Source: Escherichia phage Pu-Krd-SF3. Taken from it: a stretch of DNA of 64,000 nt. This document shows, in pieces, positions 30,530-30,577 of this stretch. Position numbers and translations under genes: made by a program. The stretch is taken from the sequence record PQ249397, one strand, 5' to 3'. Position 1 is the stretch's first letter; every line of letters starts with the position of its first letter. Below the pieces are notes generated by a model. It saw only the letters and a program-made list of their open reading frames with translations, ran no database searches and had not been told where the DNA came from.

Positions 30530-30546
30530 CCATAAAAACAACTAAA

Positions 30547-30562
30547 GGGACCCGAAGGTCCC
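30547..30562 (-). terminator. Stem-loop GGGACC-CGAA-GGTCCC between gene 23 and gene 24
   Basis: Perfect 6-bp stem directly after the gp23 stop; likely attenuates read-through into gene 24. Confidence 0.5.
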
Positions 30563-30577
30563 TTAAATCGTCAAAGA

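Follow-up and report, generated by a model that had tools for sequence, protein, structure and literature searches.

The proteins gp23 and gp24 occur in very unequal amounts in the capsid of bacteriophage T4. In 1988, Tuerk et al. reportedly described extra-stable hairpins with a C(UUCG)G tetraloop in mRNAs of T4. It was in T4 mRNA that UUCG hairpins first came to notice, and their exceptional stability does not depend on context (PMC4371310). A predicted terminator lies downstream of gene 23 in all six genomes compared by Nolan et al. 2006 (PMC1524935). In the RefSeq genome of T4 (NC_000866), segD, a GIY-YIG gene in antisense orientation, stands between genes 23 and 24, and segE stands between inh and uvsW. 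A review of T4 mobile elements gives the insertion sites of both genes identically and places intrinsic terminators on both sides of segD (PMC2988022). The SegD and SegE proteins of T4 match the Pfam family SegE_GIY-YIG. The T4 gap between genes 18 and 19 measures 116 bp and holds no gene.

Here we compare these systems with the corresponding loci of Escherichia phage Pu-Krd-SF3, for which 64,000 nucleotides of record PQ249397 were analysed (hereafter the window). From sequence comparisons, we consider it highly probable that the stem-loop behind gene 23 is a conserved Rho-independent terminator of the gene 23 late transcript, that the short 23-24 and uvsW-inh gaps are uninvaded segD/segE sites, and that the 18-19 junction carries an optional gene, probably of the HNH type.

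Gene layout and comparison with T4

The 3.3 kb around the 23-24 junction are 100% identical to PQ759884.1 (Escherichia phage Pu-Krd-SF4, Tequatrovirus; host E. coli B; piglet faeces), in which the record position minus 32000 gives the window position, and the same stretch is 97–98% identical to hundreds of Tequatrovirus genomes. The late structural genes (23, 24, 18 and 19) lie on the minus strand throughout (Table 1), and gene 23 shares 97.8% of its DNA sequence with T4 gene 23. The second short gap is enclosed by the divergent starts of uvsW (25439, minus strand) and inh (25490, plus strand), and within it TATAAATA at 25476–25469 on the minus strand faces uvsW. No ORF is present in the 23-24 gap (83 bp) or the uvsW-inh gap (50 bp), and neither could hold one; the coordinates and gap lengths given in a preliminary description of this DNA were checked on the sequence and are correct.

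Table 1. Features of the window around the 23-24, uvsW-inh and 18-19 junctions. Descending coordinates follow the minus strand.
Feature	Position	Strand	Basis or remark
uvsW-inh divergent intergenic region, 50 bp, empty	25440-25489		T4 segE site
Gene 24, capsid vertex protein, 427 aa	29211-30494	-	ORF list and T4 annotation
23-24 gap, 83 bp	30495-30577		
Shine-Dalgarno region of gene 24, AAGGAAAG	30499-30506	-	Read from sequence; conserved in alignment
T4-type late promoter TATAAATA for gene 24 (predicted)	30529-30522	-	Exact octamer
U-rich tract 3' of hairpin, UAGUUGUUUUUAU	30532-30544	-	
Gene 23 terminator hairpin (predicted)	30545-30564	-	Sequence, fold, terminator scan, conservation
Gene 23, major capsid protein, 521 aa	30578-32143	-	ORF list; 100% match to PQ759884.1 'major head protein'
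Gene 19	35947-36438	-	
Late promoter TATAAATA downstream of gene 18	36521-36514	-	Also in T4
Native gene 18 terminator-like hairpin GGCCUGU-UUCG-ACAGGCC	36540-36523	-	Same in T4
201-aa ORF between genes 18 and 19, absent from T4	36548-37153	-	Blastn against T4
Second C(UUCG)G hairpin GGGGC-UUCG-GCCCC, inside the insert, between gene 18 stop and ribosome-binding site of the 18-19 ORF	37184-37171	-	
Gene 18	37193-39172	-	

An indel map was made by blastn of the whole window against T4 66–142 kb. The blocks found only in T4 are segE (~636 bp), segD (~790 bp), segC together with 5.3 (~558 bp) and the cd.3-cd.5 region (~318 bp), and those found only in the window are 644 bp between genes 18 and 19, an internal hoc duplication of ~290 bp and the last 700 bp. 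The blocks of segC, segD and segE are thus all T4-only, meaning that all three T4 seg genes within the range of the window are absent here. The missing segC and gene 5.3 occupy T4 80217–80775, between 5.1 and 5.4, and correspond to window 56929–56934. The missing cd.3-cd.5 block (T4 133651–133969, comprising cd.4 and parts of cd.3 and cd.5) corresponds to window 4442–4452, and the last ~700 bp, window 63307–64000, show no similarity by blastn to their counterpart region in T4, which lies close to ipI, an internal-protein gene.

Two further genes differ in form from their T4 counterparts. Hoc (26180–27598, plus strand) has 472 aa compared with 376 aa in T4; a T4 hoc stretch of about 306 bp (110748–111053) has two alignments in the window, pointing to a tandem duplication of approximately one Ig-like domain. 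The uvsW region (23672–25439, minus strand) is divided between a 503-aa ORF and uvsW.1, a short ORF downstream of it, with a C(UUCG)G hairpin (23929–23914) between them. The GenBank record places uvsW.1 at 23672–23902 (76 aa), while in the mechanical ORF list a TTG start lengthens it to 23914 (80 aa). RefSeq T4 still shows uvsW as one fused 587-aa gene, with a note on sequence discrepancies.

The hairpin and late promoter between genes 23 and 24

On the coding strand, the 23-24 gap reads UAA (the gene 23 stop), 13 nt, AAGGGACC-UUCG-GGUCCCUU and UAGUUGUUUUUAUGG, so that the hairpin begins 13 nt past the stop with its 5' arm at 30564–30557, the UUCG loop at 30556–30553 and the 3' arm at 30552–30545; the gap continues with TATAAATA, 15 nt, AAGGAAAG, 4 nt and the AUG of gene 24. 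The stem consists of eight perfect pairs, five of them G-C, around a 4-nt loop, and the UUCG loop is closed by a C-G pair (...ACC UUCG GGU...), as in a C(UUCG)G tetraloop. A perfect 6-bp GC hairpin had been described earlier; the pairing is indeed perfect, but the 6 bp are only the GGGACC/GGUCCC core of the 8-bp stem. Folding of the 96-nt region gave a minimum free energy of -25.2 kcal/mol (z = -3.08), and none of 200 shuffled sequences folded equally well. A consensus scan, whose rule is 5 T in 8, classed the hairpin as terminator-like; between 29000 and 33000 it returned 10 terminator-like sites compared with 2.9 ± 1.6 in shuffled sequences, some of its sites being within genes. The U-tract UAGUUGUUUUUA has 8 U in its first 12 nt and satisfies the scan rule. 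The sequence features of an intrinsic terminator are thus found together: a G+C-rich stem with a short loop, a U run directly 3' of it, and a position at the 3' end of a transcription unit.

The element closely resembles the T4 gene 23 terminator, with which it shares the location directly past the gene 23 stop, the C(UUCG)G tetraloop, a homologous stem and a U-rich tail. The T4 element reads AGGGAACC-UUCG-GGUUCCCU-UUUUUCUAUUUU, with segD inserted directly downstream, and a few positions differ between its stem AGGGAACC/GGUUCCCU and AAGGGACC/GGUCCCUU here. The T4 U-tract is cleaner (UUUUUUCUAUUUU), whereas the tract here is interrupted (UUUAGUUGUUUUU) and consequently weaker, and read-through may be substantial. 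The hairpin is also typical of the C(UUCG)G hairpins of T4 mRNAs in its UUCG loop, its C-G closing pair and its location at a cistron end. The 64-kb window holds eight C(UUCG)G hairpins with a stem of at least 5 bp, mostly at gene ends. Between the convergent genes 24 and rnlB, a bidirectional terminator-like hairpin (29186–29207; AAAGGGACC-UUUC-GGUCCCUUU) has a stem sequence equal to that of the gene 23 hairpin, and T4 has an identical 24/rnlB element.

The hairpin is conserved among T4-like phages. We fetched 76 IMG/VR loci encoding gp23 relatives and used the 52 that were analysable with gp23 identity of at least 59%; a strong hairpin follows shortly past the gene 23 stop in all 52 of these T4-like loci. 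They contain 31 distinct hairpin sequences, in which each stem position (counted from the loop, without homology alignment) shows two to five standard pair types, Watson-Crick or G-U. Their loops are mostly stable tetraloops (UUCG in 11 variants, GNRA in 6 and UACG in 2), and U-rich tails stand behind most of the 31 variants. An alignment of the gap with those of G8 (Tequatrovirus), Mineola (Jiaodavirus) and Kosakonia phage 305 (Kanagawavirus) shows an invariant UUCG loop, compensatory stem changes, and conservation of both TATAAATA and the Shine-Dalgarno sequence. With pairing maintained across 31 variants, the structure is kept rather than the sequence. The records of Mineola, G8 and KAW1E185 already carry a 'terminator' annotation at this hairpin; a literature search for transcript mapping at the gene 23 terminator turned up nothing.

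The late promoter that the preliminary description had placed before gene 24 is confirmed as an exact TATAAATA octamer. It lies 27 nt ahead of the gene 24 ATG, and T4 likewise has TATAAATA ~30 nt ahead of this ATG. Its sequence matches that of T4-type, gp55/gp33-dependent late promoters, which have TATAAATA at about -10 and no -35 element and stand upstream of late genes. The octamer occurs 21 times in the window, compared with an expected 9.2 ± 2.8, and the gene 24 promoter is found at the same place in G8, Mineola, Kosakonia phage 305 and most IMG/VR loci. The distance between promoter and hairpin is ~790 bp in T4, where antisense segD lies between them, versus ~15 nt here.

These elements suggest a model of expression. 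In the gene 23 transcript, the extra-stable C(UUCG)G hairpin would form, followed by the U-rich tract, and would stop most RNA polymerases arriving from the gene 22/23 late promoters, thereby acting as a partial terminator. As a stable 3' end, it would probably also shield gene 23 mRNA from 3' exonucleases. Gene 24 would be transcribed mainly from its own gp55-type late promoter TATAAATA, located ~15 nt past the terminator, and the abundant capsid protein would thereby be uncoupled from the rare vertex protein. A predicted terminator followed by an independent gp55-type promoter fits the strong imbalance between gp23 and gp24 in T4 capsids, and this logic for an excess of gp23 over gp24 is consistent with what is known of T4.

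Alternatively, the hairpin may be mainly an element that stabilises or processes the 3' end of the mRNA, with most polymerases continuing into gene 24. The interruption of the U-tract just past the stem would suit such a role, as would the stability of UUCG hairpins regardless of context (PMC4371310). Additionally, other C(UUCG)G hairpins of the window stand where termination is unlikely to be the point, namely directly ahead of the 18-19 ORF's ribosome-binding site and between uvsW and uvsW.1. Nevertheless, U-rich tails accompany the hairpin in most of the 31 variants, and the conserved dedicated late promoter directly downstream would be less needed if polymerases routinely read through. Both roles could coexist, and we judge it rather unlikely that stabilisation is the main one. 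That the hairpin is a functionless chance palindrome, as might be imagined in an AT-rich genome with many short inverted repeats where a simple scan returns some intragenic terminator-like sites, was rejected and is effectively refuted by conservation, as all 52 related loci have a hairpin at the equivalent place although its sequence has changed. The failure of all 200 shuffles to fold as well also speaks against it.

An optional nuclease-like gene between genes 18 and 19

The 18-19 junction of this phage is occupied by a cleanly bounded insert. It starts right past the gene 18 stop, ends just ahead of the native gene 18 hairpin and late promoter, and brings its own C(UUCG)G hairpin, ribosome-binding site and GUG start. 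The T4-type empty 18/19 junction has the sequence GGTTAATACGGTGCATTCTAAAGGCC plus flanks. The hairpin at 37171–37184 lacks a good U-tract and may throttle read-through expression of the 18-19 ORF; with some gene callers the start falls within the hairpin, which gives a 212-aa version.

The product of the ORF matches no Pfam family and belongs to PHROG 5104, labelled 'unknown function'; its 46 homologues are all unnamed. A literature search for any description of the ORF turned up nothing. By tblastn the family was found in 239 phage records, and it sits directly between the sheath and tube genes in each context inspected (Klebsiella KP185, Acinetobacter PhT2-v2, Sinorhizobium phiM7 and Citrobacter Ci1). 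Relatives ranging from Tequatrovirus, Jiaodavirus and Acinetobacter T4-like phages to Ci1 and phiM7 are 34–50% identical. The allele found here is carried by 69 phage records at protein identities of at least 95%, while about 430 of the 502 matching records align over only ~110 bp of the query, at its gene 19 end. Within Tequatrovirus the gene is optional and has at least three divergent alleles, one of which is ~93% identical over the last 73 residues and ~30% identical over the first 128. Such a pattern would fit a mobile homing gene: presence/absence polymorphism of a 644-bp block with clean boundaries at one precise intergenic site.

Sequence motifs and structural models make an HNH-type nuclease probable. 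The protein combines an N-terminal CxxC...CxxC zinc finger with a C-terminal HNH-like motif (D153 H154 ... N176 ... N185), and in an alignment of 43 homologues C51, C54, C73 and C76 are near-invariant, whereas D153, H154, N176 and N185 are invariant. Around these residues, the sequence LDHKVSIKYGF...NLEIITWESNREK is the classical HNH signature. AlphaFold models are confident, with pLDDT values of 91 for the full-length protein and 88 for the C-terminal half, and they place the motif residues on a strand (150–154), a second strand (177–181) and a helix (182–188). The catalytic motif of HNH enzymes consists of His at the end of strand 1, an Asn, and then Asn or His in the helix, and the invariant D153, H154, N176 and N185 agree with it. 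The full-length model has two domains of uncertain mutual orientation (pTM 0.53).

Profile and structure searches gave no significant HNH match in Pfam or the PDB. Pfam searches with the ORF returned no HNH family at E ≤ 0.01 or at E ≤ 10, only a weak zinc finger and Prim-Pol noise; across the 43 homologues, DUF4379 (a treble-clef zinc finger) was found in 15 and HNH_4 in one, the latter only at E = 0.078. When the PDB was searched by sequence with the protein, or by profile with the whole family or its C-terminal part, nothing but zinc-finger, mitoribosomal mS66 or leucine-rich-repeat noise came back, and Foldseek with the full-length model returned nothing significant against the PDB. With the C-terminal model, 10 of the 14 Foldseek matches in the PDB were HNH nucleases, all non-significant (E 0.6–8, TM 0.29–0.44), including 4h9d, the NmeCas9 HNH domain, ScoMcrA, EcoKMcrA and retron Ec78 (PtuA:PtuB); another match, T5 SciA, is described only as an endonuclease. 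Neighbours in BFVD include proteins named HNH or homing endonuclease (E = 1e-5 to 1e-2). Because an invariant DH...N...N motif and a modelled strand-strand-helix core come without a significant Pfam or PDB match, we call the 18-19 ORF a probable, not a proven, HNH-type nuclease. The earlier statement that this phage had gained an 18-19 HNH gene therefore stands for the ORF itself, which is absent from T4 and lies in the 644-bp block found only in the window, while its HNH label is probable and has no significant profile or structure match.

The ORF shares several traits with the mob genes, which encode free-standing HNH homing endonucleases of T-even phages, and with further phage HNH endonucleases, namely insertion in an intergenic position between conserved late genes, presence/absence polymorphism, a zinc finger with a DH...N...N motif, and modular, mosaic alleles. 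It differs from them in having no significant match to a Pfam HNH family or a solved structure, in the C-terminal location of its motif and in its assignment to PHROG 5104. The overall pattern would fit a site-specific homing endonuclease with exchangeable DNA-binding modules. Tentatively, and with confidence that falls a little short of even, we suggest that the ORF represents an undescribed family of free-standing His-Me/HNH-type homing endonucleases dedicated to the sheath/tube junction, which may have persisted from Tequatrovirus to phiM7 by repeated homing while swapping its N-terminal zinc-finger module.

A non-mobile role has to be weighed against this suggestion. The ORF could be an optional accessory gene in the tail module, such as a regulator or a nuclease that serves the phage's own biology, since it keeps the same sheath/tube position at 34–50% identity in Tequatrovirus, Jiaodavirus, Acinetobacter T4-like phages, Ci1 and phiM7 and has no significant HNH profile match. 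However, homing endonucleases typically keep to one conserved target site as well. An accessory gene also sits poorly with its presence or absence among near-identical Tequatrovirus genomes, the clean insertion boundary, and mosaic alleles that share a conserved nuclease end but have exchanged their zinc-finger ends. The invariance of the catalytic-type residues and the BFVD neighbours named HNH or homing endonuclease likewise speak against it, and we regard the accessory role as a possible but doubtful explanation.

Empty seg sites at the 23-24 and uvsW-inh junctions

The two short gaps coincide exactly with the insertion sites of segD and segE in T4, and both genes are missing here. The preliminary description had placed, with some uncertainty, free-standing endonuclease genes of T4 in this region, and the presence of segD and segE in NC_000866 bears this out. 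Its conclusion that the phage differs from T4 in mobile-endonuclease content is likewise upheld by the blastn comparison, according to which segC is absent in addition to segD and segE. Homology with T4 in the uvsW-inh region extends through the shared TATAAATA to '...ATATTTATTAC', beyond which T4 continues with segE, whereas 13 nt and the uvsW start codon follow here. No GIY-YIG ORF is present in the 23/24 or inh/uvsW junction of this phage. On the evidence of these alignments, the short gaps are very probably the uninvaded sites of segD and segE, the free-standing GIY-YIG homing endonuclease genes carried by T4.

Empty junctions prevail over occupied ones in the phage collection. The empty 23-24 junction was found at full length in 596 records, 445 of them at identities of at least 95%, compared with 55 records containing segD DNA and 159 containing segE DNA, which makes T4 the exception. 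Thus, to say that this phage 'lacks' these genes holds only relative to T4, as the empty state is the commoner one among these records. In Klebsiella and Kosakonia phages belonging to other genera, the empty 23-24 junction reaches 79–84% identity, and for this junction emptiness is apparently ancestral.

Homing endonuclease genes are known to be gained, to decay and to be lost in cycles, and the emptiness of the 23-24 and uvsW-inh junctions could accordingly result from a secondary, precise loss of segD and segE. The two genes are 95–100% identical wherever found, which can be placed on the side of loss and indicates that they are recent and mobile within Tequatrovirus. In contrast, no remnant of segD or segE is visible in the two gaps, which align end to end with those of phages with empty sites. 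Moreover, phages of other genera show the same layout of hairpin, late promoter and Shine-Dalgarno sequence, with the 79–84% identity extending across the whole empty junction, and empty sites are far more numerous than occupied ones. We therefore consider secondary loss improbable and regard both junctions as sites that were not invaded.

The 23-24 junction receives other inserts as well. Gap lengths among the IMG/VR relatives are bimodal (77–109 bp versus 416–1640 bp), and the long gaps hold SegD-like GIY-YIG ORFs of 219–223 aa, a 93–97-aa ORF, a ~500-aa ORF and, in one lineage, forward-strand ORFs. Every insert lies downstream of the conserved terminator hairpin. The inserts are mostly antisense, and in enterobacterial lineages they stand between the hairpin and the gene 24 promoter, as in T4. 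The ~500-aa ORF contains the stretch 'ELDxYI...LAxEFNGxYWHS', which may resemble restriction-endonuclease-like motifs.

Implications

The gene 23 hairpin, the gene 24 promoter and the seg polymorphism are established T4 biology that is already known, and they leave no room for a novel reading. The missing seg genes reflect the ordinary variation among T4 relatives in which selfish genes are present or absent, with the reference phage T4 being the exception in carrying segC, segD and segE. This phage has the standard T4 arrangement that would separate the expression of gp23 (capsid) from that of gp24 (vertex), and the value of the present analysis lies mainly in correct annotation. Among T4-like phages more broadly, antisense genes have repeatedly inserted at the site just past the gene 23 terminator in many lineages. 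The only lead worth noting is the nuclease-like family at the sheath/tube junction, which is uncharacterised and a candidate new homing endonuclease.
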